A stretch of DNA of 64,000 nucleotides from an uncultured Clostridia bacterium (lineage in GTDB: Bacteria; Bacillota; Clostridia; Christensenellales; UBA1242). Of the stretch, positions 8,664-46,520 are shown piece by piece (the stretch's first letter is position 1; every line of letters begins with the position of its first letter). The notes beneath the pieces were generated by a model. It searched no databases and was not told the DNA's origin. It saw only the letters and a list, made by a program, of their open reading frames with translations. Made by a program: the position numbers and the translations under genes. The stretch is from assembly GCA_930971385.1 (NCBI GenBank), contig CAKNGB010000001.1, forward strand, positions 67,670 through 131,669. Direction: 5' to 3'.

Positions 8664-8687
8664 TTTTTGTTTTTGCAAACTAAGGAT

Positions 8688-11890: not shown

Positions 11891-11959
11891 ATGAAAAAGT
11901 TTGTCTATGGAATTTTGACCACTTTGATGCTCTTTGGAGGAGTGTTTCTTTCTGCCTGC
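11891..11959 (+). other. lipoprotein signal peptide (lipobox L-S-A-C, Cys23)
   Basis: MKKFVYGILTTLMLFGGVFLSAC; the Cys codon TGC is at 11957-11959. Confidence 0.8.
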
Positions 11960-14900
11960 GAACCTGCTCAAATTTCACTCTCTCTTTCCACAAACATTGT
12001 CAATCTTGTGACGAATGATGAAACGGGAGGAAGCCCAAGAGAAGAAACAATTTCTGTTTCACTTTCAAATTCTGATTTGGGTGTTGAAGCAGAAATTATT
12101 TCTGGTGAAGAACATATTTTGCTTTCCGACATTGTGCAAAACAGGCAAGGCAATTTCAACTTCACAATCTCAGCACAAAACAGCGGTGAAGCACTCATTA
12201 GAGTTTACTCTTTAGAAAACAATAATATTTTTGAATACATAAATGTCAGCGTTAAAACCAATCTTGAAAATTTGCAAATGAATGACATGGTGAATGCAAA
12301 TGGGCAAAGCGAGATGTGGATTGAAAGAGGAGGAAGTAAAGTTCTTTATCCTGAAACTTATTTCACTTTTGACCCTATTGATGCCGATGTGGACGACTTG
12401 GTTTGGACTTTTAACGACATTGAAAACGCCACCGACACAACAAATGCTAAAACTCAAATTGTGGAAGGCGACCAAGTTGTTGCAGAAATTATTGATAACA
12501 CACTTTATGTTTATGACAACTACACTTCGCCAATAATTAATGTTTATGCCTCTTGGCAAGTTGGCTCCACAATCATTAGTGCCGAGAATCCACTGACTTT
12601 TTCCATCGTCAATCCATCAAGCATTCAAAGTTTGGTTATAGGTGGCGAAACTATTGACTTAACAAACGCGCAAGGCGAAACCACAACAATAAAATTAGTT
12701 AAAAATAATTTTAATGCAGACGAACAAGGCTTTTTAAGCGAAGTTTCAGGCATAATGGTGGTGGAAAGTAGTTATGATATGGATTTAAGTTTGAAAGCGT
12801 ATCAAATTGTGAATGGCAAAAAAGTTTACATTGAAGATTATCAAAACTATTTTAAACTTGATGATATTGTTAAAGAAAAAGTCGACAATCAACTGACCTT
12901 TGAGTTTAAGATAGATGCACTTGACGACACAAATTCAAATTACTATGGAGATTTGTATGTCGAGTTTGTGCTGTCTTACACAGATTTTACTTATCAAATT
13001 GACACTTCAAACGCTTCGCGAGTTTTGATTTCCACATATTACGTGCCAGAAACTGTTGTGGTGAGAAACGAAACAGACAATATTGGCGGAGCAACAATCG
13101 ACTTATATTCTTCCTATTTTTCTTCGCGTGGTTATAGGCTGACTGTCAACCTTGAACCAAGTGATGTTGGGCTTAACGACAACACTTACCATATTGAAGT
13201 TGATATGGAAACATCAGGAAATCGCCCAGAAGAATATTTACAAGTTTACACTTCTTCAAGTCAAAATCCTCTTTCGTTCACAAAGATTGAAGGTTCAAGC
13301 ACCTATGAAACGGGAGCGATTGCAAGTGGCACAACCTTGTATCTTAGAAGTGGCACTCTTTCCACTTATAGCGATTTTGAAATAAGGTTTGTGGCAAATG
13401 GCAATCCTCGCTTTGCCAGTGAGTCTATCTATGCCAACGGTTATAGAATTGTGGATGATGTGACAATGAATGTTCAAAATAGCGATGGCACGAATTTTGA
13501 CTTCGATTCCACTTACTTTATTTCCTCTTCCTCAAGTTCAGAAAGAGAAATAACTTTTAATTTAAGAGTTTATGGTATGTCATCTTCCACTGGTCTTTCG
13601 CCATCCTACACTCAAAACCGCAACTTCAGCATAACCATGGTTGATGCTGGTAATTCTTATGAGGATGTGGTAAATCCAGAAAATTCCTATGTGGATGTTA
13701 ATGTGACAGTCAGCCTAAATGGTCGCAACATTCAAGATAGTTTTGAGTTCACTCTTCTTCACCAAACTGGCATGGAATCAGAGGTGTTTAAGATTGAGGC
13801 GTTTAATCCATTAACTTCTGCCACTGTTTCAAATGGAGATAGGGGGGCGGTGAATGTGTATTTCGAGGATGTGGAAAATCAAGACTATATCATCGACCAA
13901 GATGCAAACTCTTGGACTTCTTCAAATGGCGAATATGCAACATCTGACACTTTGTCAAGCGTTATGATTTCTGCTGGCTCTAACTTCCCATTAAGTTTCA
14001 ACTTCAATAGCGCAACACTAAGTGAGGATGCCGAACTTCTTGTGTTTGACTTTGAGGCATATAGAGAGCAAAATCCAAATGTTGATGAAGAAGTTTTATA
14101 TGAAGATTACTATGCTTCTTTAACAAGCGAGGACTTACTTGAATATTCTGCAAGCTTTGACGCAGATTATTCAGAATATTTCACTTACGCAAATGGGCAA
14201 ATTCGCACTCAAAACAGCGATTTCATTGTTTATGTTGCTGTGATTTTCCATGGATTTAACGAAAACCATGAAAATTTAAGTTTGGTTCGCTTGTTTAGAT
14301 TGGAAAGTTTTTATCCTGTCACGGCGCTTCGCAGTGATGTGACCGATGCTGAGTTATATGCAAGAGAAAGTTTAGGCGAAGAGGATGAAGATTTGTCTAA
14401 TATTGATGTGCAAATTTCCATGCGTCTGGACAGAGAAATACCAACCTACAGCGATATGGAGTATTTCTCAATTGCCTTTGCTTCCAACAGCACAACAGGA
14501 GCGCCAAATTACATATCCATTACTGATGAAAACAATGCTGTTAAGTCGATTATTCAAAATGAAAATGGCTCTTTAAGGCTAACTGCTTTTAACATCAACT
14601 CCAACAGGCTAACTTTCAACATTCAAGCAGAGTCCACCTTGTTTAGTTCGGAATTAAGCGAAACCATATATATAAGATATAGTTATAGACCTAACGAAAA
14701 CAGCCAAACAAGTTATGAAAGAACGGCAACCATCAATCTTAGAATTATTCAGGCAAATCGCGTGGAAAATGTTACATGGGTCAATGAAACCTATAACAGC
14801 GAAGTTTACTTAAACCTAATTTCCAACGATGTTGAAGATAAAACATTCACAATTTCCACCTCAGTTTCTCCAAACGAGGCAAATAACAGAAGTTTAACTT

Positions 14901-17900
14901 ATTACTATTATTCACTTGACGAAAGAGGCTCAAATCTTAGCATTGAAACCACAGCAATGAGCCAATCTTTCACCTTAACAATCGGCGACCAAAGCGAAGG
15001 TGGCTATGGCTATCTATACATTTTGCCAGAGGACATGGTTAAAAGACAGGGCGGTTCCAGGCAGATTGTTTACTATAACCTCAATGCAGACGGCACATTG
15101 TCGACCACAGCGGAATATTTGCCTTTGTCTGAGATTTACAGTTGGTATGACGATGTTGTGAATGCAACTGGTGAAACGGGCGAACTATATCGGGCTGACT
15201 ATTTCCTAAATAACGCTGGCGAAAGAGTGTTTTACCGCGACCTTATTTTAAGAATCCGCGTGACGATTGCCGACGGCAAGAGCGAAGAAACGGCAATTCG
15301 TGTTTACACAGAGGACGATTTAAAAAATTTGGATACCTCTTTATACTATCGTGTTATGAATGATATCACTTTGGATAACTGGACGCCTTATACAGAATTT
15401 TCTGGCATGATTTTCGGTGATAATGAAGATATCACTTTGAATTTCACGAACGGAAGCCAAACTTTTATCAGCACTTTAACTGGCGTTGTGAAAGATTTGA
15501 TTTTCACTGGTGAAGTGACAGGTGGCGGTTTTGTGGCAAACACCATTTCACAAACTGGCGCAATTGAATCTACTGGCGTTGTTTCAAATGTTAAAGTGGA
15601 TGTGAGGTATGTTGACGGAAGATACGCACCAAGTGTTGTTTATGACGGCGTGAATGTGGCTGGTTCTTACTATTTAGGCGCAATTGCTGGGCAAAATAAT
15701 GGTTTAATTGAAAATTCTTATGCCTTGGGCGTGGAACTTTCTGGAGATGTTAACAACACTTTTGTCGGCGGTATTGCTGGGCGTTTAACTGGTGAAATTA
15801 ACGGCTGTGGCGTGGAATTTTATAAGTTCGATGATGGGCAAGGCGGAGTTGTTAGCGACCAATTCTCAGGAACATATTTTGGTGGCATTGCGGGCGCTTC
15901 AACAACAGAAAATGGTAGCGTGCCAAGAATTGTCAATTCCTATGCCTATGCGTTTAGTTTGGAGGAGTATGATGAAAACATAACAATAACTAATGCTCAA
16001 AATGTGGATGCTTTCATTGGCTACACATATAATGACACAGAAATCGAAAACACCTTTGCATATCTCGGAGATATTGAAATAAGAAGCACAAGTAATTGGG
16101 TAATTAGAAACTCCTATAACACTTATATTTCCGATGTTGTGGAAGGCAATGCAACCTTAAGTTTCAGATATTTTGATTCGGATGGAGATAGTGAAGTTAT
16201 CACGCTTGACGAAATTTCAAGCGCAGACTTTTCGTCTTTGAATTCTCAAATTTGGGAATATGAAAACATTGACAGTTCAAGAAACTTTGGCTTCCCATAC
16301 CTTAAACACATCAGCCAAACACCACGCGTTTCGGTTGAACAGTCGATTTATGATGTGGATGGAAAGGTTTTGAGCGCAGAAAACGACAGAGCGGTGTTCT
16401 TCTTCTATGATGTCACAACCACACCTCAAAATGAGGGTGCAAGATATGAACTTGATATGTTTAACACCATTTCTATTATCGACCTATTTAATCTAGAGGA
16501 AGAATTTGCTGACAGCATGCTTGTTTCTGTGGACAGAGAACAATATCTTTCTTTCTCCACAACAAATCTGTTTGTTGAGCGAACAACCTTAGACTTATCC
16601 AGCAAAATTGTGACGCTGAATTTGTTTAGCAGAATGGACTTTTCTGTTTCCAAGCAATTTGAAATTATGATTGTTTATGCCGTGCCAGAAATGTCGCTGG
16701 CAACAGGCGGTTCAACGCTTAATGCTGGGCAAATTTTAAGCGTTCAAACAGGCAGAAACAACTCAAGAACAGTGGAAACAATTGTGGATAGCAACCTCTA
16801 TTTAAACGGCACGCGCTACACACTTTTGCAACACGATTATTACTACACAAACACATTAACAAACAACCAAACCGAAAGCGGAGAAAATTACTTCTCTTCA
16901 AATGTTGCAGGCAACACGGTTAACTACACAGCAAATTTGGCAACTGGTGGAAACTATGTTAATTCTTCAATTTCCATGGGCATAACCTCAATTGACACTC
17001 CAGAACTTGCCGACTTTAATAATGCTGTTGTGAATTATAACACCACATCCATTTTGCTTGGCTCGTATAACGGCGCAAATGCTTTGTTTATCGACGCCAT
17101 TTCCTCCGACATTTTACCTTCGGAATCCACCTCATTTAATGCGGTGCTTAACACAGATAACAGCGAGGATGACCTTGTTTTGACCTTTGTTTACAACGAT
17201 TTGGAATATGATGTTGTGATGGAAAGCGACGCGAAAGGCTATGTTCAAATTGGCGACAACTTAAAACTTGATGTTAACATTGCCAAAACTTCTGAAAGTG
17301 ACAACGAAATGAGATTTAATGTTATCATAAATGTCAACAAAGATTATAGATATAAGGTGGATGGCGACTATGCACTCACAGTTTTGGTTAATCCATTAAG
17401 TTCAAACAATTACACATGTTCATTTAATCTTACGGTGCATAAACAAGAAATTAACGCTGTGAATATGACAGCCTACACCATCTCCAGTCGTGTTATCTAT
17501 AATTCTGTTTGGTATTATTCTCCAAGCGACACACTTTCTTCCACCTTAGTTCCAGGCACAGACTCCATTTTAACCATGGAAGTTAGCCCAAGTTTCGCTC
17601 ACTATTCCTATTTCACCTTAAACTATGAAATCTCCACAAGTGGAAATGTGGGCACGGTTAGCCTTGCAAGGTTAAGTTATGTTCCTTCTTTTGGCTATCG
17701 AATTAACAACACAACCTCAGAAAGCATCGGTTCAGGGCTTAGGATAACGCCAAACGAAAGCGATTATTCTAATGGTATATATTATTTTAGAATTTACATA
17801 TCTTCTGGTTTTTCTGCCAACAGCACGCTAAGGCTTGTTGTGAATTTCTATGACGAAAATGGCGTGATTGGCACAAGTTATGTTTATAACTATATGATAG

Positions 17901-20900
17901 ACTATCTCAACGAGGCAAACGTGCTTGTTGACGGCGCAACCACGGTTATGCTTGCCAAGGGCGACACTGCTGAAATTTCCGTGACTGTTGACCTTGACCA
18001 AACACTCACCAATCTTTCTTTGGTGGGAACAGGAAACGACATCACAAGAAGTGATTTAGTTGAAACCGTCACCGAAACATCAAGAGTATACACTGCAACT
18101 CTTCGCACCTCGGTTCTTTCCACGGTTTCAAGCGGAGCGACTGGTGCTTTCCGTGTGCAAGCAACAGTGCAAAGAACAATCAGTGGCGAAACGGAAATCA
18201 AACAAAGTTATGCCACAGTTTATCTTGTTGATTTCACAATTAATGCCGACGAAACGCATATTGCTGGAACAAGCTCCACTGCCACGTATAACGGAAGAGA
18301 ATATGATGTTCTTCACGGCTATGTCAATGCCACAAATGCCTTAGATTTTAACTATTCAATAAGCCCAGAAGAATATTCCTATGATGTTAATAACATTGAA
18401 GAGGCTGAAGCGGTTCTTGAGCTTGAAGAAAAACGCGCTGAGTTTAACGCTAACGACTCCTATGCCGACACTGCAACTGGCTATTACATCAACTATCAAC
18501 AAACAGCAAATGGATATGAAGAAGTGGCATTAAGAGAAAGACTTTACATTGTTTCATCCACTGGCGTGGCAACACATATATATAACACCGAACGCGACAG
18601 ATATGTGGAAAACACCATTGTGGAATTTTCAGGCTCTGGCGGAAATGTTTCAGTTCGAGGGCTTAGAACAGGTCAACTTCTTATGCGTCTTGAAACATAC
18701 ATTGTGGTGAACAACACTTCTTTCACATATACTTACGATTTCCTCATCAACATCGAGGTTTGGACGGATGAAGAAGTGCCTCTTCCAATCTACACAGCCG
18801 AGCAGTTTGTGGATTACCTTTCTGGCAACGAAAATGGCACCTCCACTGCGGATGACTATATTCTTATGAACGATATCGTTTTAACAGACTACACACCTTT
18901 GTCCACTCAATATTTCGACAGCTTTGATGGTAATGGCTACACAATTTTCATAAATTCCTTCCATTTCGACTCTGCGTCAACCACTTTAAATTTGGCGCTA
19001 TTTAGTGAAGTGACGGCAAATTCCACCATAAAAAATGTTAGGGTGAATTTGTATAACGGCGGGAAAATAACCGTTAACTTAAATGTCTATAACGAAGTGA
19101 ACATTGCAGGCTTTGCACTTGTCAACAACGGAATTATCTATAACTCAGATGTGGTGGCATATTACGATTCCAACCTTTCAAGTTCGCAAATCGTGTCGTC
19201 GGCAACAGGGCTTGTGGTTGATTTTGTTCGTGGCGAAGGCACCGACCCAATAAATATTACTTCCACAAATATGTCAAATGACGACGTGTTCATATCTGGT
19301 TTTGTTGGCACAAATGCTGGCGTAATCACAAACAGCCGTGTGGGTGGCGAAACATATGCGGTCATCATTGAAAGAAATGGCTCAACTTTCTATAATGAAA
19401 CAACTTTGCCACTTTTCACCTTGCAAGGTCAAGGCAATGTGGCGGGCTTTGTGGGAGAAAACTCAGGAACAATTTCTTCTTCCTTTGCAAAGAACATTGA
19501 AATTAATAACCAAATGAATTCCACTTCTTCAGAAACGGCAGGCTTTGTTCTAAGTAACTCTGGCGAAGTTCACACCTCCTTCATTCAAGGTCAAAACGAC
19601 CCAGACTCTGAGGACTACTACTATGACGGCTCGTCAATTATTTCCACTGGTCGAGTTGGCGGATTTGTTTACTTCAACAGCGGGCTTGTTAAAAACTCAT
19701 ATGTCAACATCGCCTTTGAAATCGACGCTTCAAGAAGTTATCTTTCTGCTGGTTTTGTTTACGAAAATTCTTCTAACGGCGAAATCACGCTTTGCTATTC
19801 AGCCACAAAAATGTCGAACTCCAACATCAATGAAATGAATTTCTCTGGCGTTAATGAAAGAGGTGAGGACCTTAACCAAAACCCAACAGGCATCACTTAT
19901 TCTTATTATTATGTTCCAGAAAATGTCGGCTCAACAACTCAGGATAGTTACACCACAGGCGCAACCTCAATCACCGATGTGGATGTTGAAGATGCTTTCT
20001 ATCGCTTCAGTTTTGCTTCTGAAGAGGGCGCTCTTGACGGCATTTGGACGATGACAGAGGACGGAATAACTCTTACAAGCGCAAATCACATCGCATTTTC
20101 AAACAGATACTTGGTTCAAAGTGAAACCTCGGAAGAATATTCTCTCTTCTACAGCACTTTAACCGACTACAGCACAAGGAGACTTGTGGATTTATCCTAC
20201 GGCTCACTTAAAAACCCAATCATCATTCGCGATGCATCCGATTTTGCTCTTGCAACAGGAAAAGCGCAAGAAAAAGAGATTTCTTCCTATAAACAATATT
20301 ACACTGACACAGAAGTTTTTGGACACTACAGAATTGTCAGCGACATCGACTTTGACGATATCGACCAAAACCTTGAAGGCGCAGAGGAACTTAGGCTGAC
20401 CACCACCACAAAGACCTTCTCAGGAATTTTGGATGGCAATGCTTTCACAATTTCAAACATCAACTTAGGCTCTTCTTCATATGTTGAAAACTATGGCTTG
20501 TTTGCAAGGCTTAATGATGCAAGCATAATGAACTTGGGTTTGGAGGTTGCTTCCGTTCACAATGTTAACGCAAACATTGTGGGCACACTTGCAGGAACGA
20601 TGATTGATTCTCGTTTAAGTGGCATAGAACTATCTCCAATTCCAACAACCTCCGAGGAAGAGGAAGTTGTTTCGGTTTCCATTGCAGGTAATAACATCGT
20701 GGGTGGTGTTGTGGGAATTGTGCTTGGAAATTCAAAACTTTCCGACATTCAAGTGACAGATATTGATGTTGTTTCGGCATACTACGACGGCTCAAAAGAG
20801 GTGGGCTATAACGACAGATTCACTGGCACAAATATCAGGCAAATTACCACAATCGGCGGGTCTTTGATGAATGCTGTGGATGAGCTTTCTTACGCAGGCG

Positions 20901-23900
20901 CTGTAAGCGGATATGTTGATATGTTCATGTCTGTGAATGAAGAGAGTGTGGCATATTCCACCACCGTGGTGATTCCAGATTTCCAAGTTGCCACAATCCG
21001 AGTTTTAAGTTCGGTTGACATCTACGGCGAAGTGGCAGGAGGCATTTTCGGATATCTTGGCTCTTCCACTCAGGCTTTTGATATGGGGCTTGAACTTGAC
21101 GCCAACATGAATTTAACAAATCCTTCTTATATCACTTCAAAAAATCTTTATGCAGGCGGACTTGTGGGTGAAAGTTATGGCGGACTTTACGCTGTTTACA
21201 CAGAACACATAAGAACAATGCAAGACACAATTGAAGAGAGTATGTATTCCTATTATAATGGCTCACAAGACGTGGAAAGAGGTCAGATGAGCATCTTCTC
21301 TTACACGCAAAACGACACACTTCACTATAACACTCGCTATAACAACCCATACTATGTTGGCGGACTTGTGGGCTATGCTGGTGGCGGATATATTTCTGTT
21401 GCTTACAACAGGCTTAATGTTGTTTCCAACACCACCACGCGTGAGGAATCCTATTTCGGCGGAATAATTGGCTATCTCAACGCTTCAACAACATACAACA
21501 CCAATTCCATAACCGACAACAGCGAGGTTACTTATTATTTGCATGAAGTTTACTTCTCTGGCGTTTTAAACAGCAACACTTCAGCGCTTGTTGGCGGTAT
21601 TGTTGGTCAAATTTCAAGTTCCAGCGTGCTTGCAATGGAATTTGTCAACTCAATTCCATACTACGAACAAAATTCCAACCGTGACAACATCTTTGCCCTT
21701 GTTGCTGGCTTCGAACACGACGATTTAGGCATGGAAGTTCTTCCATCGCATCTATATCTTCTTGATAACTATTCTGGCTACTACGATGTGATAACAAAAG
21801 TGCGTGTGGCTGGAAGAGATGCGGCTGTCACCACAGTTTCCGCGGTTGTGGAATATCTTTATGAAGACGACACCTTAACCGACGAGCAATCACGCATGAA
21901 CTATATTAACGGCTTTAGAGATAACTTAATTGTCTATAACGGCACAGGAGTTGATTCTGTTGACTCTTCCGATGTTGACTTTTCATATGAATATGCTCAA
22001 ATAATTCAATCGCCAAGCCACCTGTCAACAATGGCAATGGCATACACAAGAATGAGCAACTTCTTCATCCGTGCAGGTTGGAATGACTCGGTTTGGACGC
22101 ATGAACTTGAAACCATGTTCCCAAGAATTGAGTTTGTTCCAGAATTAACTGTTATCTATCTTGACTATGACATAGACAGTGTGCGAGAAGTTCTTGAGGC
22201 TATCCACTTCAACTCCTCTCTCACTGTTGTTGTGCGCGGGAGAATTGATAGAGATGATCCAGATGCTGGACATGCCGATGTTGATTTACGAAGGTTTGAC
22301 GGCCCAGATGAATATGAGAATGTCGTTGGCAAAATTTTAACCCCAACATTAATTAACAACTTCTCAGGAAGAATCATCTCCTATCGTGCCTTTATTAATG
22401 AAGGAACAGGCGATGCAACTGAAGGTATTGTTAATAGAAACATAAACGGAGATATAGGAGGGGAACAAGGTGCTGATGTTGGAATCATAATCGACAGCGC
22501 ACTCTTTGAAAACGCCATTTCTGGCTTTGAAATAACTGACCTAAATATTTACTATCATGAAAGTGAAAGCGACACCACAACAAGCCACTCAATACTAATT
22601 GAAAACACAGCAAATGGCGCAATTTTAAATAACCTTAACATCTATGTTAGGTCAGACCTATCCATTGAAGCAGATTCCTATGGTAGAGCAGGCATTTTGG
22701 TTCCTTACGCAATCTCTTCCGACTTTACTGGCGTTCACTTCACTTTGAATGAAGGTGTCAGCATCAATTTTGCCTCCTTCGACACATCCGACGGTAGCAC
22801 TCCACAAACAAATCAATATTTCGGCGTGCTTGCTGGCGTCATCAGGCAGGAGTCACCATATCGTGCAATGGCGGTTGGCAATATTAGGTTTGATCGTGTT
22901 GAGGGGGCGGAGGACTCTCCAATTGCCATTAACTTTGAAAATAAAACTAGTGATGATTATTCATATAACATATATTTCGGGCTTTTAACAGGGCAATGGG
23001 AAATTGATTCCTATGCAGCGGATGCAACTTTCAGAATTAACAACTTAACTAACACAACTTTAAACATCACTTTGGGATATACGCCAGATGGTATTGCTTC
23101 TGTTGATGCCAATATCAACGATATCTATTTTGGAGGATACATTGGTCGAGCAGACATCACTTCAATCGAAACAGAGGCAAACAAAGATCCAAACGAGAAG
23201 ATATTAAGCAACACCATCAATGTCACACAAAACTTTAGTGTTGCAAACAACGAATATTTTGGGCTTGTTGTTGGAGAATTGGAGGGTAATGGTGGCGTTC
23301 GTTTCACAAGCAGTTCAATCCCTGGCACCGATAACACTTTGGAGATAAACGGCAGTTTAAACCTTGGTGATAGTGCTATTGGTAACGATGCATATATAGG
23401 TGGATTCATAGGACACGCAGAATTTAACACGGTTATCACCTGTCAGCTTAGTGTTAATTTTAGTGTTAATGAAGATGATATTACTACATTAAATGGAGCG
23501 TTTGAAGAACCAACCAAAGAACCAGAGACACCACTTCTTGTCACAAACAATGCATACATCGGTTCATTCATTGGCTATCTGTCAGGTGGCTCCTTGAGGC
23601 TTGGAGGTTTTGATGTTAGGGGTAATATCAATGTTAAAATCAAGGAATCAACAGGTGGTGATTTAAATCAATTAATTCGATATGGCATTGTCGGCGAAGT
23701 CTTTAACGCTAACCTTACTATTGATCCAGGCTCTAGTGGTCATTCAATTTCAAGAGTGAATGTTGTTGCAAACAGCAACATTGAAAATAACAGTAGAGAT
23801 GAACAATTGTATGTTGGCGGACTTGCTGGCATAGTTTCGGGAACAAGTGAAATTGATGTTAACCGTTTCCTTTACACTGGCACAACTGTTGCTTTCAGCG

Positions 23901-26900
23901 AAACACTTAAATTTGGTGGCTTGTTTGGGCAAATTGGTCGTGCACTCGAAACCACAACAGCAGAAACCACAATAGCAAATACCATAATAACAAATTCTGG
24001 CTATGGCGGAAAAGTTGAATTTATGGATGTTAAATCGCAAGGAACAGATGAAGAAGGAAATCCAATACCTTATGACTATGCCTATAACCTCACAACAGGC
24101 GGAATCATTGGCACGATTGAAGCAAGCGGAGTCACAGACTATTTTGAGATTTCAATTGAAGGCGCAAGAACCTATGGCGATGTGTATGTAAACTATTCAG
24201 ATGACGGCGCAAAACTCACCACTTTCTACTATGGCGGAATCATCGGCGAATATCAAGCGCCAGTTCAAGAGGTTGAGGATATTGACACTGTCAGCCTCAA
24301 CATGTGCTACACACTTATGACGCCATTCAATTTCAGATTAACCGAGAGTTATGAATTATCTCATTATCAAGTTAACGCACTTGTTGGATTTGGCAGTGAG
24401 TCAATTTCATCCTATACGAAAAATCTCTATTCTTCCAGCGTCAACTTCTCATATCAAGACATTAGCGAAGATATCGGCAGTGCAAATGTTGATGTTGGAT
24501 ATTATAATAAAAATGTTGGGAACGATGTAATAAAAAGCGATGCATATCGCGGTTATGGCGCAACAGCGTCAGATTCTTCCTATTCATATGAAAACATCGT
24601 GGGCGTTATGCACGACTTTGCAGGAGAATTTGAGCTTGAATTGACCAACGCAAAACTTAATCCTTTGCAAGTTGTGGCAATGAAGATAGACGGTGAGGAA
24701 GATAAGGAATATGAAGTTGAATTTAAAAGTATAACAGAAAAAACAAACGCTGTTTCGTGGTATTATCTTGCAGGCGATTTAGATTTGATGCCAGAAACTG
24801 AGACTGAAACTTCACCTTCAATATCCGAATTGAATAATATTGTTTTGGTTGGAAATGGAAATCGAATTCACACAAACACCGCACCAATCAACACAATGGC
24901 AACGAAGGGAAATTCCTTCACAGTTGTCACCAGCCTTATTGTTGACATGGATATGTCGAAAACCACCATTGCTGGCGAAACAATCGGCGGGCTTATCAAC
25001 ACGCTTGGCGATCCAAGTAAGACTGATAACACCGCAACCGCACTTCTATACGGCGTTGGTGTGGAAGGCGAGATGTATATTGGTGGCAATCGAAGCGAAG
25101 GTGTTATGGTTGGCGGAATTGTGGGAGATATGTCTATCGGCATAATGGAAAATGCCTACTTTGACGCCGACATCTTCTTTGGTTCATACGATACGACTAA
25201 TCTTGCCACAATCAGCGGAGTTGCCAACACAAACTCGGCAAATGTGCTGATAAGAAACACCTTCTCAGGCGGTTCAGTGCAAGCGTATGTTCCAGTGAAT
25301 ATCGCACTTTTCAACTATCACATAACACCACAAGGTGTTGAAGACACAGCAGAAATAAGAATATATGATTCCTATTCATATATGAACATACTTCGCTATG
25401 ATTATGGCCATGGTGTTGACGGCGAGGTTTCAGCATTTGCTGTGAATGAGAGCGAAAGAATTTATTATGACAACTCAGCGGATAATATGGCACTATATTA
25501 TTCAGGTGATTATTCGTCAGATATTTCAGGCGACGGAACCCATGCTGAAACAGGTGAATTGTCAGTTGGCTGGAATAAAAATGGCTCAATAAGTGACGTG
25601 AACAGCATTTTGGTAAACGGAAGTGACCAATCTCTTGCTAAGTGGAATCACTCACGCTATTTCAACAATGGCTATGCAACCACAAACTTTGGCTATTTAA
25701 GAAATGTTTCGGTTTATAGTTATAGCACAACCACTGCGGAATACACAAAACTATCGTTCGACCAAGCCTATAACCTTGACTATACAAGCAGTCACACACC
25801 TAATGAAGAAGGTGGCGAAACTGGTGGAGAAGATGACGAAACAGGCACAACGCTTCCAACCGATTACTACTTTGCTGTTCAAAGCCATGCAAAATTCGGG
25901 CAAGCAATGAAAGCGATTAATAACACAAAAGATGAAAACGGTGAGGATGCTATTTACTCAAATGACACACAATTCTTCTTGAAATACGATATTGATTTAA
26001 ATAAAATACCTATGGATTCTGGTTACTCTCGCGGACAAGACTTAGGCACAAAGGATAGACCAATAACCATCGACGGACAGGGCAATAACTTCACTTCAAC
26101 TGAAGGAGGCGATAAAGGCAACACAGCAATGTTTGATGAGATACACGGCACACTAAGAAACCTCAACATTGTTGTGAACGGAAAAATTAATGCAACAAGC
26201 GACTATAATAGAGGTGAGGATAATCCAGGCAAAGGCGAAGATGCAATTAAAGTTGACATTGAAGGCGAAACAACCGAGTCATCAAATGAATATTACACTA
26301 TCTATGGCGCACTTGCAAACCGCTTGTATGGCTCTTTAAACAATGTGACAGTTAAAGGCGATATTGCTGTTAAAGAACAATCTCAAATTGTTATTGGTGG
26401 TGTTGTTGGCTATGCCGAAAGTATGAAAAAAGAGGCGTCACCAGATAATCCAAGTGAAGGAACTGCCTTAAATTCAATAACGAATGTGACAAGTTTAGTG
26501 ACAATAAACACATCTGAAGGGACATCTGGTATTATTGGTGGAGTTGTTGGAATAGCCAAGGATATTAAAATAAGTAATTCCACATTTGCTGGAAATATCA
26601 TTTCAACAAGCGTCAATGAAGGACGGGTTTTAGGTGGTGATATTACTCTTCTAAATAATAATGGTGGCGATGAAATTGACAAAGCTATTACAAATGAGAA
26701 TATCGTGTTAAATAATGTTATTGGCGGAATTGTTGGTGATTTTGAAAGTAGCGATAACGAGGCTACAATTTCATACTGCTTTAACACAGGCTCAATCATC
26801 AATAACTATAAGTCAACAAACACTTCTCTTAATCTTTCCAGTGGGGGAATTGCTGGTTATTCAGAGGCTGAAATCTCAAGTTCGCTGAACACGGGATACG

Positions 26901-29900
26901 TGCAAGCGGGGAATTATGACAACACGGGCGTGGCACTGGCTGGCGGAATTGTTGGCTACACAACCGCAAGCATCACAAACTGCATCAACGACGCCCGCGT
27001 CCACGCAATCAGTGATCTTGAACCATCTTACTCTGTAGAAGAAGGTGCAACTATAGAACTTAATGTTCCAGGATTGGATAAAGATGGCAAGCCAGACAGA
27101 ACAGATTCTGCTGGAGATGCAACGGCAACAGTTTCATATAATATAACCTATAACTCTGAAAATCCAAACCGCCTTGTGTTTGCATATGCACTTGGATATG
27201 TTAATAATACTAATAATGCAAGAGCCACAGCGTCTGGTGTTAACATTCAAAATGGCACGGATGGCGGTGTTGATGTGTCAAATGATCTAGTTGAAAGCAC
27301 TGGTATTATTAACGACGGAAACATCGGACAAATAAGTGTTGATTATTATAAAGAATTTACACTTCCTCGCTATGCAAACGGATCAGATGATTTTTGGATA
27401 GGTGCTCAAGGATATCAAGAAAATATTGGCGATAGATATGGACTTTCTGATTCTTATAGTTTTAGTTCAACGCCAGATGTAAGTGCATACGATGCTTATG
27501 GTTTCCCAAGTAGGTTTAATTTGTCATATACTTACACATTTGATTTTGAAATCTTTGATTTATTTACATTGAACAATGTTTTTAAAGATGGAAATGATTT
27601 ATTAAATATCACTATAAAAGATGATTATACTACTGAAGGACAAACTATAGATTTAGCAGATTACTATGCTGATGTTGAAACATACAATGCTTTAGCTCCG
27701 GCTTATATAATGCTTCGTGATCTTGGAATAATAACAGACGAGCAGATGTATTACACTGGATTTTATTATGATGGAAAGAACTATCCTGGATTATATGAAC
27801 TGGTCCAAAATTGTTATGAAAAGATAAGTGCTCCTACTTATCCAGGTGGAGCAACTGAATATTATTTGTCATTGAATATGTATGATTATGGTTCTGACCG
27901 CTATGATGGCATATCATATGAAAACTATGTTATGCAACTTAATGACACCATGAATCTTTCAAATTATTCTAATGTCACTGAAATAACAGAAACTCCAAGC
28001 GGATTATATGACGATATCACAGATGTAGACACAGCAACAAAGGCTAATAAAACAATCAATATTGCTGGTGAGGATTACACAATAGCATATGATGACAATA
28101 ATTTAACAGAGAACTTAATTTTAAAAACCAATGTAAATTCATTAACAGATGGCACGGTTTATGGAAATGACCACACTCTTTCAAGATTTAGTGAAAAAAC
28201 CGATGGTTCGGATGCAACTATTTCAATTAGCAACTGGAAGAATGTTAACATAGTGACCTCTGCATCGTTAGAGAACATTGAAAGTAGTTTCAGTTTTGTT
28301 TCAAAATTTTCTAGCGACACTGCATTTATTACATTTTATGGTTCATTAAGAAATGTAAATCCAACAACTTCAAGTGATATTGCTATAACAAGTGTTAATT
28401 CTACTTATGGAGACCTTTCAGAAAGTGGCATGATGACTTTCTATATGTCATTAATTGGAAAAGATGCACCTCATAATTTAAGTACTTCTTCTTCTAGATA
28501 TGGTGAAAGTGTATCGGTTGAGTTGACTATGGCAGGCGAAAAAAACTATGGCGTTGTGGTTTCTGGAAATGGAGCAAATGGGTCTAATGGAGCTGATGGA
28601 GCAATCGTTCATAATAATACCTTTGGACGTGGTGGAAATGGCGGAACTGGTGGAACGATTGATATACCAACTTCTTCAAATATTACTTCTATTTATGGTT
28701 ATAATGGCGTTGGTGGAAATGGCGGAAATGGTAGCAACGGAATAAATGCAGAAGTGACTGAATATGGTAGTACTGGGGTCACTATACAGGGAAATAGAGG
28801 CGGCTACGCCGGTGGCGGCTACGGCACTGCAACGGCAAATGAAAACACCAAATCGAATTTAAGAGAAAGTAGAGCATTGGCTGGCTCTGGTGGAACTGGT
28901 GGGCTTGGTCTTGTTTATTATCATAAATATATTAATAATGAGATTGATGATTCTAATGTAGGAGGAAATGATTATTACCAAGTTGAAAATGCAATTAGGC
29001 AGTCTTTATCAAACATTGGCTTTGATGCTGGATATAGATATTACCAAGGTTTCGAAAATGGGTTAGATAATGTGATAGGTAATGGTAATGTAGGACTTGA
29101 AGATTATTATCAAAGGCATTTTTACATAACAGCGGCAGGTGGTGGTAGCGCAGGTGGTCTTAAAGCTAATGGAAATCAAGGCAGTAAAGGTGATACATTT
29201 AGAGGATATGACGCAATTTCACGTAATGATACGACTTATGGAACATATGGTTATCTATGGATTGATGATCACAATTCTGGCTTGTTTGATAATGACAATG
29301 AAGTGCTTTGGGGTGGTTTACAATTGATTCCTGCTTTTTCGCATAATAAAGTTAATACTGGTACTTATGGAGGACGAGGTGACTCTAACTATTTAAATAA
29401 TGCTACAGGATTAGCAACAGCAGTTGGAAATTATATAAGTGATTATAAATGGGGATTAATAGGTGACGGGTATATATATTCTTATGAAATAACCGCATCA
29501 GGGGGTCATACGACTACACTTACATGGAGAGTAAGTGAAGAGGTAAGTCCAAATATGTATAAGTTAGAATTAACTTCAGGTCAATCTGGATTTGAGATGT
29601 ATAATTATTATATGAAATATGAAAACTCGCAATATATTTTAACAGATAGACAGGGTAATTATGTTGATGTCACTGTAAAACCTACAGATGAGCCAACAAT
29701 AATAAATCGTGTCAGAGGCGGCGAAGATTATAATGTAGCACTTTATGAATATAAAGCTGATGGATCTATAGGTTATAAAGATGAAAAAAATCCATTCAAG
29801 AGATCAGAAAATAAAATTAATGAAGCGTATAAGAATATAAAAGCTTATAATGGCGGAACTATGTGGGATTATATCTTTGTTGGTGGCACTGGCGGATCGG

Positions 29901-30106
29901 CGATAGAAGGCGATGACACTGCAGGTGAAGCAGGAGGAACTCCATATTTGCAACAAATTTACGGAACGAATGATGCGTTTAATGATACTTATGAAAATTA
30001 TTGGTATACGCGAGATGACATGGTGACATCGGCTGGTAAATATGGTAATGCTAGTGAGCTTGGGACATATGCTGGCAGTGGTAGTTTTGAACAAAAATAT
30101 ATTTAA
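11891..30106 (+). CDS. giant surface lipoprotein (6,071 aa) with Ig-like repeats, multiple GLUG-type beta-solenoid modules and a Gly/Asn-rich C-terminal region
   Basis: Uninterrupted 18,216-nt ORF with a strong RBS and a lipobox (VFLSAC). Dozens of GG[IL][VAI]G repeats sit in the GLUG context (e.g. YLGAIAGQNNGLIENSYA, FVGGIAGRLTGEINGC, YVGGLVGYAGGGYISVAYN). Confidence 0.9.
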   Translation: MKKFVYGILTTLMLFGGVFLSACEPAQISLSLSTNIVNLVTNDETGGSPREETISVSLSNSDLGVEAEIISGEEHILLSDIVQNRQGNFNFTISAQNSGEALIRVYSLENNNIFEYINVSVKTNLENLQMNDMVNANGQSEMWIERGGSKVLYPETYFTFDPIDADVDDLVWTFNDIENATDTTNAKTQIVEGDQVVAEIIDNTLYVYDNYTSPIINVYASWQVGSTIISAENPLTFSIVNPSSIQSLVIGGETIDLTNAQGETTTIKLVKNNFNADEQGFLSEVSGIMVVESSYDMDLSLKAYQIVNGKKVYIEDYQNYFKLDDIVKEKVDNQLTFEFKIDALDDTNSNYYGDLYVEFVLSYTDFTYQIDTSNASRVLISTYYVPETVVVRNETDNIGGATIDLYSSYFSSRGYRLTVNLEPSDVGLNDNTYHIEVDMETSGNRPEEYLQVYTSSSQNPLSFTKIEGSSTYETGAIASGTTLYLRSGTLSTYSDFEIRFVANGNPRFASESIYANGYRIVDDVTMNVQNSDGTNFDFDSTYFISSSSSSEREITFNLRVYGMSSSTGLSPSYTQNRNFSITMVDAGNSYEDVVNPENSYVDVNVTVSLNGRNIQDSFEFTLLHQTGMESEVFKIEAFNPLTSATVSNGDRGAVNVYFEDVENQDYIIDQDANSWTSSNGEYATSDTLSSVMISAGSNFPLSFNFNSATLSEDAELLVFDFEAYREQNPNVDEEVLYEDYYASLTSEDLLEYSASFDADYSEYFTYANGQIRTQNSDFIVYVAVIFHGFNENHENLSLVRLFRLESFYPVTALRSDVTDAELYARESLGEEDEDLSNIDVQISMRLDREIPTYSDMEYFSIAFASNSTTGAPNYISITDENNAVKSIIQNENGSLRLTAFNINSNRLTFNIQAESTLFSSELSETIYIRYSYRPNENSQTSYERTATINLRIIQANRVENVTWVNETYNSEVYLNLISNDVEDKTFTISTSVSPNEANNRSLTYYYYSLDERGSNLSIETTAMSQSFTLTIGDQSEGGYGYLYILPEDMVKRQGGSRQIVYYNLNADGTLSTTAEYLPLSEIYSWYDDVVNATGETGELYRADYFLNNAGERVFYRDLILRIRVTIADGKSEETAIRVYTEDDLKNLDTSLYYRVMNDITLDNWTPYTEFSGMIFGDNEDITLNFTNGSQTFISTLTGVVKDLIFTGEVTGGGFVANTISQTGAIESTGVVSNVKVDVRYVDGRYAPSVVYDGVNVAGSYYLGAIAGQNNGLIENSYALGVELSGDVNNTFVGGIAGRLTGEINGCGVEFYKFDDGQGGVVSDQFSGTYFGGIAGASTTENGSVPRIVNSYAYAFSLEEYDENITITNAQNVDAFIGYTYNDTEIENTFAYLGDIEIRSTSNWVIRNSYNTYISDVVEGNATLSFRYFDSDGDSEVITLDEISSADFSSLNSQIWEYENIDSSRNFGFPYLKHISQTPRVSVEQSIYDVDGKVLSAENDRAVFFFYDVTTTPQNEGARYELDMFNTISIIDLFNLEEEFADSMLVSVDREQYLSFSTTNLFVERTTLDLSSKIVTLNLFSRMDFSVSKQFEIMIVYAVPEMSLATGGSTLNAGQILSVQTGRNNSRTVETIVDSNLYLNGTRYTLLQHDYYYTNTLTNNQTESGENYFSSNVAGNTVNYTANLATGGNYVNSSISMGITSIDTPELADFNNAVVNYNTTSILLGSYNGANALFIDAISSDILPSESTSFNAVLNTDNSEDDLVLTFVYNDLEYDVVMESDAKGYVQIGDNLKLDVNIAKTSESDNEMRFNVIINVNKDYRYKVDGDYALTVLVNPLSSNNYTCSFNLTVHKQEINAVNMTAYTISSRVIYNSVWYYSPSDTLSSTLVPGTDSILTMEVSPSFAHYSYFTLNYEISTSGNVGTVSLARLSYVPSFGYRINNTTSESIGSGLRITPNESDYSNGIYYFRIYISSGFSANSTLRLVVNFYDENGVIGTSYVYNYMIDYLNEANVLVDGATTVMLAKGDTAEISVTVDLDQTLTNLSLVGTGNDITRSDLVETVTETSRVYTATLRTSVLSTVSSGATGAFRVQATVQRTISGETEIKQSYATVYLVDFTINADETHIAGTSSTATYNGREYDVLHGYVNATNALDFNYSISPEEYSYDVNNIEEAEAVLELEEKRAEFNANDSYADTATGYYINYQQTANGYEEVALRERLYIVSSTGVATHIYNTERDRYVENTIVEFSGSGGNVSVRGLRTGQLLMRLETYIVVNNTSFTYTYDFLINIEVWTDEEVPLPIYTAEQFVDYLSGNENGTSTADDYILMNDIVLTDYTPLSTQYFDSFDGNGYTIFINSFHFDSASTTLNLALFSEVTANSTIKNVRVNLYNGGKITVNLNVYNEVNIAGFALVNNGIIYNSDVVAYYDSNLSSSQIVSSATGLVVDFVRGEGTDPINITSTNMSNDDVFISGFVGTNAGVITNSRVGGETYAVIIERNGSTFYNETTLPLFTLQGQGNVAGFVGENSGTISSSFAKNIEINNQMNSTSSETAGFVLSNSGEVHTSFIQGQNDPDSEDYYYDGSSIISTGRVGGFVYFNSGLVKNSYVNIAFEIDASRSYLSAGFVYENSSNGEITLCYSATKMSNSNINEMNFSGVNERGEDLNQNPTGITYSYYYVPENVGSTTQDSYTTGATSITDVDVEDAFYRFSFASEEGALDGIWTMTEDGITLTSANHIAFSNRYLVQSETSEEYSLFYSTLTDYSTRRLVDLSYGSLKNPIIIRDASDFALATGKAQEKEISSYKQYYTDTEVFGHYRIVSDIDFDDIDQNLEGAEELRLTTTTKTFSGILDGNAFTISNINLGSSSYVENYGLFARLNDASIMNLGLEVASVHNVNANIVGTLAGTMIDSRLSGIELSPIPTTSEEEEVVSVSIAGNNIVGGVVGIVLGNSKLSDIQVTDIDVVSAYYDGSKEVGYNDRFTGTNIRQITTIGGSLMNAVDELSYAGAVSGYVDMFMSVNEESVAYSTTVVIPDFQVATIRVLSSVDIYGEVAGGIFGYLGSSTQAFDMGLELDANMNLTNPSYITSKNLYAGGLVGESYGGLYAVYTEHIRTMQDTIEESMYSYYNGSQDVERGQMSIFSYTQNDTLHYNTRYNNPYYVGGLVGYAGGGYISVAYNRLNVVSNTTTREESYFGGIIGYLNASTTYNTNSITDNSEVTYYLHEVYFSGVLNSNTSALVGGIVGQISSSSVLAMEFVNSIPYYEQNSNRDNIFALVAGFEHDDLGMEVLPSHLYLLDNYSGYYDVITKVRVAGRDAAVTTVSAVVEYLYEDDTLTDEQSRMNYINGFRDNLIVYNGTGVDSVDSSDVDFSYEYAQIIQSPSHLSTMAMAYTRMSNFFIRAGWNDSVWTHELETMFPRIEFVPELTVIYLDYDIDSVREVLEAIHFNSSLTVVVRGRIDRDDPDAGHADVDLRRFDGPDEYENVVGKILTPTLINNFSGRIISYRAFINEGTGDATEGIVNRNINGDIGGEQGADVGIIIDSALFENAISGFEITDLNIYYHESESDTTTSHSILIENTANGAILNNLNIYVRSDLSIEADSYGRAGILVPYAISSDFTGVHFTLNEGVSINFASFDTSDGSTPQTNQYFGVLAGVIRQESPYRAMAVGNIRFDRVEGAEDSPIAINFENKTSDDYSYNIYFGLLTGQWEIDSYAADATFRINNLTNTTLNITLGYTPDGIASVDANINDIYFGGYIGRADITSIETEANKDPNEKILSNTINVTQNFSVANNEYFGLVVGELEGNGGVRFTSSSIPGTDNTLEINGSLNLGDSAIGNDAYIGGFIGHAEFNTVITCQLSVNFSVNEDDITTLNGAFEEPTKEPETPLLVTNNAYIGSFIGYLSGGSLRLGGFDVRGNINVKIKESTGGDLNQLIRYGIVGEVFNANLTIDPGSSGHSISRVNVVANSNIENNSRDEQLYVGGLAGIVSGTSEIDVNRFLYTGTTVAFSETLKFGGLFGQIGRALETTTAETTIANTIITNSGYGGKVEFMDVKSQGTDEEGNPIPYDYAYNLTTGGIIGTIEASGVTDYFEISIEGARTYGDVYVNYSDDGAKLTTFYYGGIIGEYQAPVQEVEDIDTVSLNMCYTLMTPFNFRLTESYELSHYQVNALVGFGSESISSYTKNLYSSSVNFSYQDISEDIGSANVDVGYYNKNVGNDVIKSDAYRGYGATASDSSYSYENIVGVMHDFAGEFELELTNAKLNPLQVVAMKIDGEEDKEYEVEFKSITEKTNAVSWYYLAGDLDLMPETETETSPSISELNNIVLVGNGNRIHTNTAPINTMATKGNSFTVVTSLIVDMDMSKTTIAGETIGGLINTLGDPSKTDNTATALLYGVGVEGEMYIGGNRSEGVMVGGIVGDMSIGIMENAYFDADIFFGSYDTTNLATISGVANTNSANVLIRNTFSGGSVQAYVPVNIALFNYHITPQGVEDTAEIRIYDSYSYMNILRYDYGHGVDGEVSAFAVNESERIYYDNSADNMALYYSGDYSSDISGDGTHAETGELSVGWNKNGSISDVNSILVNGSDQSLAKWNHSRYFNNGYATTNFGYLRNVSVYSYSTTTAEYTKLSFDQAYNLDYTSSHTPNEEGGETGGEDDETGTTLPTDYYFAVQSHAKFGQAMKAINNTKDENGEDAIYSNDTQFFLKYDIDLNKIPMDSGYSRGQDLGTKDRPITIDGQGNNFTSTEGGDKGNTAMFDEIHGTLRNLNIVVNGKINATSDYNRGEDNPGKGEDAIKVDIEGETTESSNEYYTIYGALANRLYGSLNNVTVKGDIAVKEQSQIVIGGVVGYAESMKKEASPDNPSEGTALNSITNVTSLVTINTSEGTSGIIGGVVGIAKDIKISNSTFAGNIISTSVNEGRVLGGDITLLNNNGGDEIDKAITNENIVLNNVIGGIVGDFESSDNEATISYCFNTGSIINNYKSTNTSLNLSSGGIAGYSEAEISSSLNTGYVQAGNYDNTGVALAGGIVGYTTASITNCINDARVHAISDLEPSYSVEEGATIELNVPGLDKDGKPDRTDSAGDATATVSYNITYNSENPNRLVFAYALGYVNNTNNARATASGVNIQNGTDGGVDVSNDLVESTGIINDGNIGQISVDYYKEFTLPRYANGSDDFWIGAQGYQENIGDRYGLSDSYSFSSTPDVSAYDAYGFPSRFNLSYTYTFDFEIFDLFTLNNVFKDGNDLLNITIKDDYTTEGQTIDLADYYADVETYNALAPAYIMLRDLGIITDEQMYYTGFYYDGKNYPGLYELVQNCYEKISAPTYPGGATEYYLSLNMYDYGSDRYDGISYENYVMQLNDTMNLSNYSNVTEITETPSGLYDDITDVDTATKANKTINIAGEDYTIAYDDNNLTENLILKTNVNSLTDGTVYGNDHTLSRFSEKTDGSDATISISNWKNVNIVTSASLENIESSFSFVSKFSSDTAFITFYGSLRNVNPTTSSDIAITSVNSTYGDLSESGMMTFYMSLIGKDAPHNLSTSSSRYGESVSVELTMAGEKNYGVVVSGNGANGSNGADGAIVHNNTFGRGGNGGTGGTIDIPTSSNITSIYGYNGVGGNGGNGSNGINAEVTEYGSTGVTIQGNRGGYAGGGYGTATANENTKSNLRESRALAGSGGTGGLGLVYYHKYINNEIDDSNVGGNDYYQVENAIRQSLSNIGFDAGYRYYQGFENGLDNVIGNGNVGLEDYYQRHFYITAAGGGSAGGLKANGNQGSKGDTFRGYDAISRNDTTYGTYGYLWIDDHNSGLFDNDNEVLWGGLQLIPAFSHNKVNTGTYGGRGDSNYLNNATGLATAVGNYISDYKWGLIGDGYIYSYEITASGGHTTTLTWRVSEEVSPNMYKLELTSGQSGFEMYNYYMKYENSQYILTDRQGNYVDVTVKPTDEPTIINRVRGGEDYNVALYEYKADGSIGYKDEKNPFKRSENKINEAYKNIKAYNGGTMWDYIFVGGTGGSAIEGDDTAGEAGGTPYLQQIYGTNDAFNDTYENYWYTRDDMVTSAGKYGNASELGTYAGSGSFEQKYI
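28551..28925 (+). repeat. Gly/Asn-rich low-complexity block (GNG/GGxGG repeats) within the giant protein
   Basis: VVSGNGANGSNGADG...GRGGNGGTGGTI...GYNGVGGNGGNGSNG...GNRGGYAGGGYG...LAGSGGTGGLG. Shorter echoes occur at ~29125-29200 (AAGGGSAGGLKANGNQGSKGD) and ~29875-29950 (VGGTGGSAIEGDDTAGEAGG). Confidence 0.8.
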
Positions 30107-30175
30107 TAAAAAAATCTGGAAAAATTTTGAAAAAGTTTGTGAAATCGTTTGGTGTTTTTGGCTTGGGTGGAGTAT

Positions 30176-30227: not shown

Positions 30228-30264
30228 TAATGCGTGACGCAAATAAAAACACTAAGGAGGAATT

Positions 30265-30993
30265 ATGGATAACAGTGATGTTTCTCATGCTGGGCACAGA
30301 GAACGCCTTGTTGACCTTGCCATTAATGCAGGGCTTGAGAGCATGAATCAATATCAAGTTTGTGAACTCCTTTTAACTTACATATTTCCTCGCGGGGATG
30401 TTAATCCACTTGCACACAGGCTTATCGACACCTATGGAACGCTGACCAACATCATTGACGCATCGGTTGAAGACCTTTCCAATGTTAAAGGCTTGAACAC
30501 AAGAAGTGCTAAGAAACTCTCTTTATTTGGCGAACTGTTTTTCGCATATGTGACTGCAAGAATGACAAGAAAAACGCAAATTGAAAATGAGCATGATGTT
30601 GTGGATATGGTGGAAGATTTACTTAGATTTAGAACTTCTGAAAACATCATTATGCTGGGTTTCAGCGTGGCAAACCTTTTGTGCGGAAGAAAGAGAATTG
30701 TTGCTTCTGAATCTGATGAAGTGAACATTCCAATCATGGACTTGACCGCATTCCTATCTTCAGTTAAACCACATTCTTTTGTTATGGCGCATTGTCATCC
30801 TTATGGCACTGCAAATCCGTCGGAGGCAGACCTCAAAGCCTTTGACATGGTGCAGAAAATTTGCTTCGACTGTGGAGTGAATTTTGCAGGGTGCTACATC
30901 GTTGGAGAGGACGGCGTTTATGCTATTCATAAAAATAAATTTGCACGAACCTACTGCGATGTTGACAGCCTTAAAAAAGCATTTAAAGTTTAA
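30265..30993 (+). CDS. RadC-like JAB/JAMM domain protein (copy 1)
   Basis: RBS AAGGAGG. N-terminal GHRERL, HhH-like segment DLSNVKGLNTRSAKKL, JAMM motif HCHPYGTANPSEAD. Confidence 0.8.
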   Translation: MDNSDVSHAGHRERLVDLAINAGLESMNQYQVCELLLTYIFPRGDVNPLAHRLIDTYGTLTNIIDASVEDLSNVKGLNTRSAKKLSLFGELFFAYVTARMTRKTQIENEHDVVDMVEDLLRFRTSENIIMLGFSVANLLCGRKRIVASESDEVNIPIMDLTAFLSSVKPHSFVMAHCHPYGTANPSEADLKAFDMVQKICFDCGVNFAGCYIVGEDGVYAIHKNKFARTYCDVDSLKKAFKV

Positions 30994-46436: not shown

Positions 46437-46520
46437 ATGGCAAAAACTTTTAAAAGAATTTTTGTTGGCGTCTTTTCTGCAATCGCTTTTATGGTTGCAG
46501 GACTCTTTTTTGCTGGGTGT
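46437..46520 (+). other. lipoprotein signal peptide (lipobox F-A-G-C, Cys28)
   Basis: MAKTFKRIFVGVFSAIAFMVAGLFFAGC. Confidence 0.75.

Follow-up and report, generated by a model that had tools for sequence, protein, structure and literature searches.

The hypervariable regions of the Wolbachia surface protein WSP form a mosaic surface antigen that is reshuffled by homologous recombination. Fibrillar and other giant adhesins with a strain-variable tip carry a signal peptide and an anchor at one end and a very long, beta-rich, repetitive stalk, with diversity concentrated farthest from the anchor, and polymorphic toxin systems (CdiA-CT, Rhs, LXG) combine a giant protein with a variable C-terminus. 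In Enterobacteria, the surface-determining genes that vary most, those of the O-antigen and capsule loci, also have the highest AT content of the genome (PMC3715488, PMC7305143); within O-antigen clusters, GC content falls towards the serotype-specific genes, for which import from low-GC species is the conventional explanation (PMC3715488). In this work, we analyzed a 64,000-nucleotide stretch of DNA from an uncultured Clostridia bacterium (contig CAKNGB010000001.1, positions 67,670 to 131,669; hereafter, the window), and specifically a giant gene in it, 6,071 codons long, whose last sixth is markedly AT-rich. We conclude, with a probability of roughly 0.6, that this AT-rich sixth is a long-standing, strain-variable and recombining outer tip of the encoded protein which has settled at the neutral composition of its host, and not a recent foreign import.

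The giant protein resembles the described systems in several respects. Its N-terminus, MKKFVYGILTTLMLFGGVFLSAC, reads directly as a lipoprotein signal peptide with the lipobox LSAC. It is kept in all 14 alleles and provides both the export signal and the surface anchor expected of a giant fibrillar adhesin, so that the protein is predicted to be surface-located and lipid-anchored N-terminally. As the anchor is N-terminal, the C-terminus would be the membrane-distal end. The putative stalk, long, repetitive and apparently beta-rich, has GGxxG(Y/F) rungs reminiscent of GLUG; GGIVGY-type motifs recur along it, with the Pfam GLUG and Ig families unmatched at E <= 0.01, and sequence and profile searches of Pfam, NCBIfam, PHROG and the PDB matched no family to any part of the protein. 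It differs from the described adhesins in its N-terminal lipobox anchor, which would place the putative tip at the C-terminus, and in that no stalk or adhesive domain was found in Pfam, NCBIfam or the PDB. As in WSP-type antigens, conserved anchors alternate with hypervariable blocks, block phylogenies disagree with the backbone and many allele classes coexist; unlike them, the variable region is far larger (~2,700 aa) and belongs to one single-copy chromosomal gene, with no silent copies in the window. The likeness to O-antigen and capsule loci lies in the most variable surface genes being the most AT-rich, with GC dropping away from conserved flanks. Those loci, however, are multi-gene clusters, whereas here the gradient runs inside one open reading frame (ORF), has the composition of host intergenic DNA and has no outside relatives that we could find.

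The initial annotation, made from the sequence of the window, had described a sharp compositional break over the last ~950 codons of this ORF, based on hand counts of 60-nt lines. All five counts were reproduced (43.3, 58.3, 20.0, 21.7 and 31.7% GC), and the ORF does continue through the break without interruption. The break itself is real: the maximum-likelihood change point in GC content at third codon positions (GC3) falls at codon 5040, nt 27011 (2-lnL support 26999-27047), with GC3 of 0.372 before and 0.206 after it and a log-likelihood ratio of 56.4, compared with a mean of 3.9 and a maximum of 13.6 in 2,000 block permutations. Its extent has to be corrected, as the segment comprises 1,031 codons and low GC3 begins near codon 4831. 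The regions of the gene, including the GC content at four-fold degenerate sites (GC4) where determined, are as follows, allele classes being defined by an identity of at least 90% and counted per 120-aa block:

11891..30106, plus strand: giant gene, 6,071 codons (6,071 aa), a single uninterrupted ORF in the window
11891..22090, plus strand: conserved N-terminal ~3,400 aa, 90-100% identity in 13 orthologues, about 2 allele classes per block, GC3 0.33-0.43
22091..26380, plus strand: moderately variable mosaic zone, aa ~3401-4830, about 7 allele classes per block, GC3 0.28-0.40
26381..26920, plus strand: onset of low GC3, from near codon 4831, GC3 0.17-0.43
26921..27010, plus strand: conserved GC-rich island of 30 codons (NTGVALAGGIVGYTTASITNCINDARVHAI), GC3 0.70, 59% GC
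27011..30103, plus strand: C-terminal part (C-part), 1,031 codons, GC3 0.206, GC4 0.194, almost no codon bias, about 8 allele classes per block
28544..29130, plus strand: Gly/Asn-rich motif core of the C-terminal module (C-module), with GNGANGxNGADG, GGNGGTGG, GVGGNGGNG, ALAGSGGTGGLGLVYY and AAGGGSAG
29456..29815, plus strand: hypervariable insert cassette, aa 5856-5975 (~120 aa), at least 7 types in 14 alleles

That codon choice shifts together with the GC drop, as first noted, holds within amino acids: synonymous usage differs between the part of the gene preceding the change point (N-part) and the C-part with a chi-square of 245 (40 degrees of freedom), the fractions of AAC, GGC and TCC falling from 0.50 to 0.19, 0.46 to 0.21 and 0.17 to 0, and those of ATA and GTA rising from 0.19 to 0.47 and from 0.02 to 0.24, respectively. 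The window's 27 other genes served as compositional background; they have one codon usage in common with the N-part and with a second giant gene (GC3 0.33-0.43 in nearly all), and native values return downstream of the giant-gene stop. The break looks sharper in the window allele because the GC-rich island interrupts the low-GC3 zone and abuts the C-part; in other alleles, 1,262-1,264 codons follow the change point, which puts it ~230 codons earlier. The protein sequence of the island is 99% conserved and 84-88 of its 90 nt are identical in both lineages that were sampled as DNA, namely the window lineage and that of L009 (lineage 2), and it is a probable recombination anchor.

The composition of the C-part matches that of the neutral DNA of the host. 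Its third positions (A.31, C.11, G.09, T.48) are close to host intergenic DNA (A.36, C.10, G.12, T.43; GC 0.218), observed and neutrally expected synonymous fractions correlate with r = 0.93, and the C-ending (NNC) fraction in two-fold families equals its neutral expectation (0.18 in both cases). Expressed as codon bias relative to the neutral intergenic model (G per codon), the C-part scores 0.08, against 0.38 for the N-part, 0.43 for housekeeping genes and 0.56 for rpoB/C. As a separate observation on codon bias, rpoB (58191-61910) has a four-fold GC of 0.27 versus 0.36 in other genes, yet the C-ending fraction of two-fold families peaks in rpoB and rpoC taken together (0.54). This suggests translational selection for T/A where four codons are synonymous and for C where two are, so that GC3 by itself is a poor measure of codon adaptation.

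Low GC3 is a property of this region in relatives as well. Within L002-L007, GC3 is 0.20-0.22 after their own change points, and it is 0.205 over the last 1,000 codons of L009. Between the two lineages, the last ~670 codons show synonymous divergence (dS) of 0.86-2.0 and nonsynonymous divergence (dN) of 0.3-0.66, whereas dS is 0.31-0.40 in the flanking uvrB, RadC and metallo-beta-lactamase-fold genes. Silent sites are thus saturated with both lineages at the same GC3 of ~0.205, which argues against a foreign composition. Orthologous loci were reached through the RadC neighbour and one genome scan; L019, L020 and L022 are distant ones with the same order of giant gene and then RadC. In L019, GC3 is 0.265 in the giant tail, 0.25 in the C-module and 0.386 in RadC; in L020 the C-module has 0.366 versus 0.43-0.45 upstream; and in L022, whose RadC is 62% identical, the last 299 codons have 0.221 versus 0.343 upstream.

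GC3 also follows conservation between alleles along the gene, with a Spearman rho of 0.65 for the whole gene (p 1e-13) and 0.47 for the N-part alone (p 6e-6), class means rising from the least to the most conserved as 0.20, 0.25, 0.33, 0.39 and 0.41. The second giant gene (46437..57875; 3,812 aa) shows the same relation (rho 0.52 with close and 0.53 with distant orthologues; p ~1e-5), its most variable segment being:

56637..57236, plus strand: aa 3401-3600 of the second giant protein, that gene's lowest GC3 (0.26)

Conservation of this segment is 0.66 in close orthologues and 0.02 in distant ones; the distant orthologues span only ~88% of the second giant protein. Among young third-position changes between close alleles of the C-part, 8 were GC>AT and 8 AT>GC, whereas drift towards the composition of the N-part would give ~75% AT>GC (8/16 seen, p = 0.027, with small counts). 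Recently acquired foreign DNA would be expected to look atypical even against the neutral DNA of the host, and to be absent or different in close relatives while donor homologues exist. Instead, the C-part fits the neutral model, and the module occurs with low GC3 in both lineages and in the three distant loci. The suggestion of the initial annotation that the AT-richness came from a different genomic background is therefore not borne out: low GC3 recurs in both lineages, in three distant loci and in the second giant gene, it matches intergenic composition, and no donor was found in the libraries searched.

The same region concentrates the variability of the protein. Comparison of strains for alternative C-termini was one of the checks proposed at the outset, and 13 full-length orthologues (5,946-6,089 aa) did show them, the identity over the last ~1,000 aa lying anywhere between 35% and 100%. 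On average, a block has 2.25 allele classes before aa 3400, 6.9 at 3400-4800 and 8.1 beyond 4800, and class membership reshuffles from block to block. The insert cassette is the most variable piece: its types are 15-59% identical to one another, and it is missing in L019 and L020, the remote homologues. P0006 and P0011 have inserts 98% identical with only 84% identity over the N-terminal 3,300 aa; conversely, other pairs combine 99% identity in the N-terminal part with 19-31% in the insert, P0003 and P0010 among them with 19%. This disagreement between insert sharing and the N-terminal phylogeny implies that cassettes are exchanged between strains. The extreme C-terminal 15-25 residues (window 30000-30103) also differ by allele group (…GSFEQKYI, …GVTVTQS, …GFSFSFSFK, …KIRVTNN), each tail finishing in a short run in which hydrophobic residues alternate as in a strand.

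At the DNA level, flanks within the window lineage are 98-98.7% identical. In the block at ~26100-26900, on the other hand, the window is <70% identical to the same-lineage L002-L006 and at least 99% identical to the lineage-2 alleles L010 and L011; judged from these alignments, the block is an inter-lineage recombinant segment. One chicken-gut sample (run X4) carries both versions of it, the major contig (depth 24) having the divergent version and small contigs (depth ~4) being identical to the window allele, a sign that strains differing in this allele are co-resident. Averaged over the C-part, dN/dS between lineages is 0.3-0.5. Third positions account for 71% of the singleton differences within allele classes in the C-part, compared with 75% in the N-part and 91% in uvrA/B, which implies that each allele is functional and under purifying selection. 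Taken together, these results define a mosaic, cassette-exchanging and deeply diverged C-terminal region without codon bias beyond the neutral composition of the host. The proposal of an acquired or exchanged C-terminal cassette was thus right as to polymorphism and exchange of segments, seen in the mosaic map, the recombinant block and the discordant inserts, and has to be modified in that the results do not support a single acquired ~950-codon cassette and show many sub-cassettes in its place.

A separate search with the C-terminal part, another of the proposed checks, revealed no relatives beyond its own family among protein representatives, phages, plasmids and viral contigs. The exhaustive phmmer search against 1.84 billion protein representatives gave 9 matches, among them one representative of the giant family, several short proteins aligning to the C-terminal end of the module, which are probably fragments, and three weak longer ones, two of which (P0020 and P0021) are orthologous loci. 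Viral contigs, phage genomes (tblastn) and plasmids (tblastn) yielded none, a word-index search with the C-module profile had no match, and neither the N-part nor the second giant gene resembled the C-part, which speaks against an internal duplication. Residues ~348-1017 of the C-part align in the same order with P0021 (828 aa), which has the motif set in common with them. This protein is encoded in the distant relative L019, where the C-module is a separate gene (6615-9101), split off at a point equivalent to aa ~5226, with its own AGAGGTG ribosome-binding site, located 21 nt past the stop of the giant ORF and just before RadC; being separate there and fused in the window and in L022, the C-module is a distinct unit. 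Its Gly/Asn-rich core is invariant even in 33%-identical remote homologues, and, together with the motifs YLWxDxH, LQLIPA and YTRDDMVTSAGKYG, remains so at 31-33% overall identity. AlphaFold gave low predicted local distance difference test (pLDDT) values (27 for the whole C-part, 32 for the last 327 aa) and no structural claim is drawn from these models. The protein family is otherwise uncharacterised and confined to a narrow clade; the giant gene is present in one GTDB species representative only.

As a model that would account for these results, we propose that nt ~26381/27011-30103 encode the membrane-distal C-terminal module of an N-terminally lipid-anchored giant surface protein, its most likely role being that of an exposed recognition tip under balancing selection. 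Across the population, the module and, more weakly, everything beyond aa ~3400 come in many alternative versions, deeply diverged cassettes that homologous recombination, probably at short conserved islands, reshuffles between strains and lineages. Negative frequency-dependent selection on the exposed surface, for instance by phage, host antibody or competitor contact, most likely maintains this diversity. The AT-rich third positions would then be an equilibrium state, with silent sites at the mutational (intergenic) composition of the host, since the weak force that keeps C-ending codons in other genes, be it codon selection, GC-biased gene conversion or both, may be ineffective in the C-part. 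Probable reasons are that the sub-populations formed by allele classes are small and recombine poorly, or that linked selected sites interfere. While the match to neutral composition is directly observed, this cause is our interpretation.

Several points weigh against this interpretation. GC-biased gene conversion, which has been proposed for bacteria, normally predicts higher GC in recombining genes (PMC4450053), and it must therefore be assumed in addition that conversion is ineffective inside diverged blocks. The blocks at aa 3400-4800 have nearly as many allele classes, yet their GC3 is 0.29-0.40, and locally conserved blocks inside the C-part still have GC3 of 0.10-0.20. Variability by itself thus accounts for GC3 only in part, so that how deeply alleles have diverged, or the module acting as one unit, must matter too; and, as the C-part behaves as a unit, a separate origin would explain it too. 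Besides, a correlation with an AT-rich neutral model would be expected of any AT-rich donor as well, the directional test draws on 16 changes only, and the average dN/dS of 0.3-0.5 does not demonstrate positive selection.

A separate origin could take the form of repeated import of cassettes from a wider, AT-richer pool (other species or phages), the composition being that of the donors. Variable surface loci of low GC, O-antigen clusters among them, have classically been read in this way (PMC3715488), and import would agree with a C-part whose codon usage is strongly unlike that of host genes and uniform whatever the local conservation, with cassettes common to lineages that differ by 16% elsewhere, and with a C-module detachable as a separate gene with its own ribosome-binding site. 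Nevertheless, we regard it as unlikely: the phmmer search returned 9 matches in all, two of the three weak longer ones being orthologous loci; phage genomes, plasmids, viral contigs, PHROGs and the PDB contained nothing; and one GTDB species representative carries the gene. Furthermore, the composition equals that of host intergenic DNA, silent sites between alleles are saturated with GC3 of 0.205 on both sides, and young changes show no AT>GC excess. Alternatively, AT-rich or rare codons might be selected for function in the tip, either to slow translation in aid of folding or export or to form an internal AT-rich promoter from which the module would be expressed on its own. The doubling of the rare codons ATA, GTA and TTA (from 0.031 to 0.064 per codon), the low GC3 kept in distant orthologues and the existence of the module as a separate gene in L019 speak for it. 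We consider it improbable, as usage is at neutral expectation in nearly all codon families with no particular codon enriched, and the depression of GC3 scales with between-strain variability in two genes, unlike a folding signal.

The giant size, the predicted surface location and the variable C-terminus would also suit a polymorphic toxin or contact-dependent inhibition system, in which a conserved delivery stalk carries a variable C-terminal toxin with a cognate immunity gene, and invariant polar motifs of the C-module (W-D-H, R-D-V-T) might conceivably be catalytic. Here, however, Pfam, NCBIfam and the PDB gave no toxin domain, and variation is graded over ~2,700 aa, from aa ~3400 onwards, in many independently assorting sub-cassettes in place of a sharp boundary between delivery part and toxin. 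The 158-nt gap past the stop holds no conserved ORF, and the RadC-like gene that follows is identical across L001-L008 despite their different C-termini and is kept in distant relatives, and is hence not an immunity gene; nor does the 64-kb window contain orphan cassettes. A polymorphic toxin locus was accordingly rejected and seems very improbable to us. The initial annotation had likened the region to the variable C-termini of polymorphic surface and toxin proteins, of which the surface mosaic stands and the toxin does not; it had also stated that no silent cassette or immunity-like small ORF follows the giant gene and that the next gene is RadC-like, which is correct within the window. Last, the break could be an artefact of chimeric metagenome assembly or of amino acid composition, given that the genome is metagenome-derived and the C-part rich in Gly, Asn and Tyr. 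This possibility is practically negligible. Single contigs from two independent DNA runs (2019 and 2025) cover 25500-30400, junction included, with 0 differences, the same allele being assembled in independent samples, and composition is native again after the stop. GC3 expected from the amino acid composition of the C-part under native usage is 0.38-0.40 (observed, 0.206). Together with the block permutations, this shows that neither the normal variance of the gene nor its amino acid content, the two explanations that the initial annotation had named as able to overturn the break, accounts for it.

A diversity-generating retroelement target was likewise rejected, since the C-part has no long imperfect repeat elsewhere in the window and the annotated neighbours include no reverse transcriptase; in addition, C-part variation includes indels and identities of 15-40%.

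The immediate surroundings of the giant gene are chromosomal, its neighbours in the window being the housekeeping genes mfd, uvrB, uvrA, fba, hflX, rpoB and rpoC; a VirB4-like ATPase adjoins the second giant gene. Directly downstream of the giant gene lies:

30265..30993, plus strand: RadC-like gene, adjoining the giant gene in all lineages including distant ones

This RadC keeps its place directly after the giant gene even where it is only 62% identical (L019, L022), and a second RadC-like paralogue is found 8 kb away (38717-39463, minus strand). Between uvrB and uvrA, lineage 2 (L010:13749-14831) has a 360-aa ORF with no recorded Pfam match where the window has one of 126 aa (33981-34361), which amounts to a small indel polymorphism in a block that is syntenic apart from it. 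Searches for tRNA genes and Rfam families were negative, as was a search of 29900-30400 for a promoter or terminator consensus. The sequencing runs containing the region are mostly chicken-gut metagenomes. One metatranscriptome contig bridges the break (26387-27318) with 2 differences, and metatranscriptome contigs of run X16 cover most of 25507-28964 plus 29775-30089, break included; the giant gene thus appears to be transcribed in the chicken gut, with DNA carry-over in the RNA library being possible.

Intragenic compositional breaks are routinely read as horizontal transfer, and here a very strong one marks a resident hypervariable region. The giant gene offers a clean within-gene case in which a strong compositional break can be endogenous, and it allows one to ask why variable surface loci are AT-rich. 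It is tempting to speculate, although we would place the odds somewhat against it, that a long-term balanced cassette-swapping polymorphism locally abolishes the force maintaining codon bias and GC, so that silent sites relax to mutational composition, and that the C-module, with its GNGANG, AAGGGSAG, YLWxDxH, LQLIPA and YTRDDMVTSAGKYG motifs, constitutes a new recognition domain family displaying a swappable insert of ~120 aa. If this were true and general, a fall of GC3 to intergenic values within a gene would mark, from sequence alone, epitopes that are ancient, exposed and balanced, and many low-GC "foreign" surface loci, O-antigen-like cases included, would be endogenous. For the uncultured chicken-gut bacterium itself, this uncharacterised giant surface protein is probably a main strain-specific interface.

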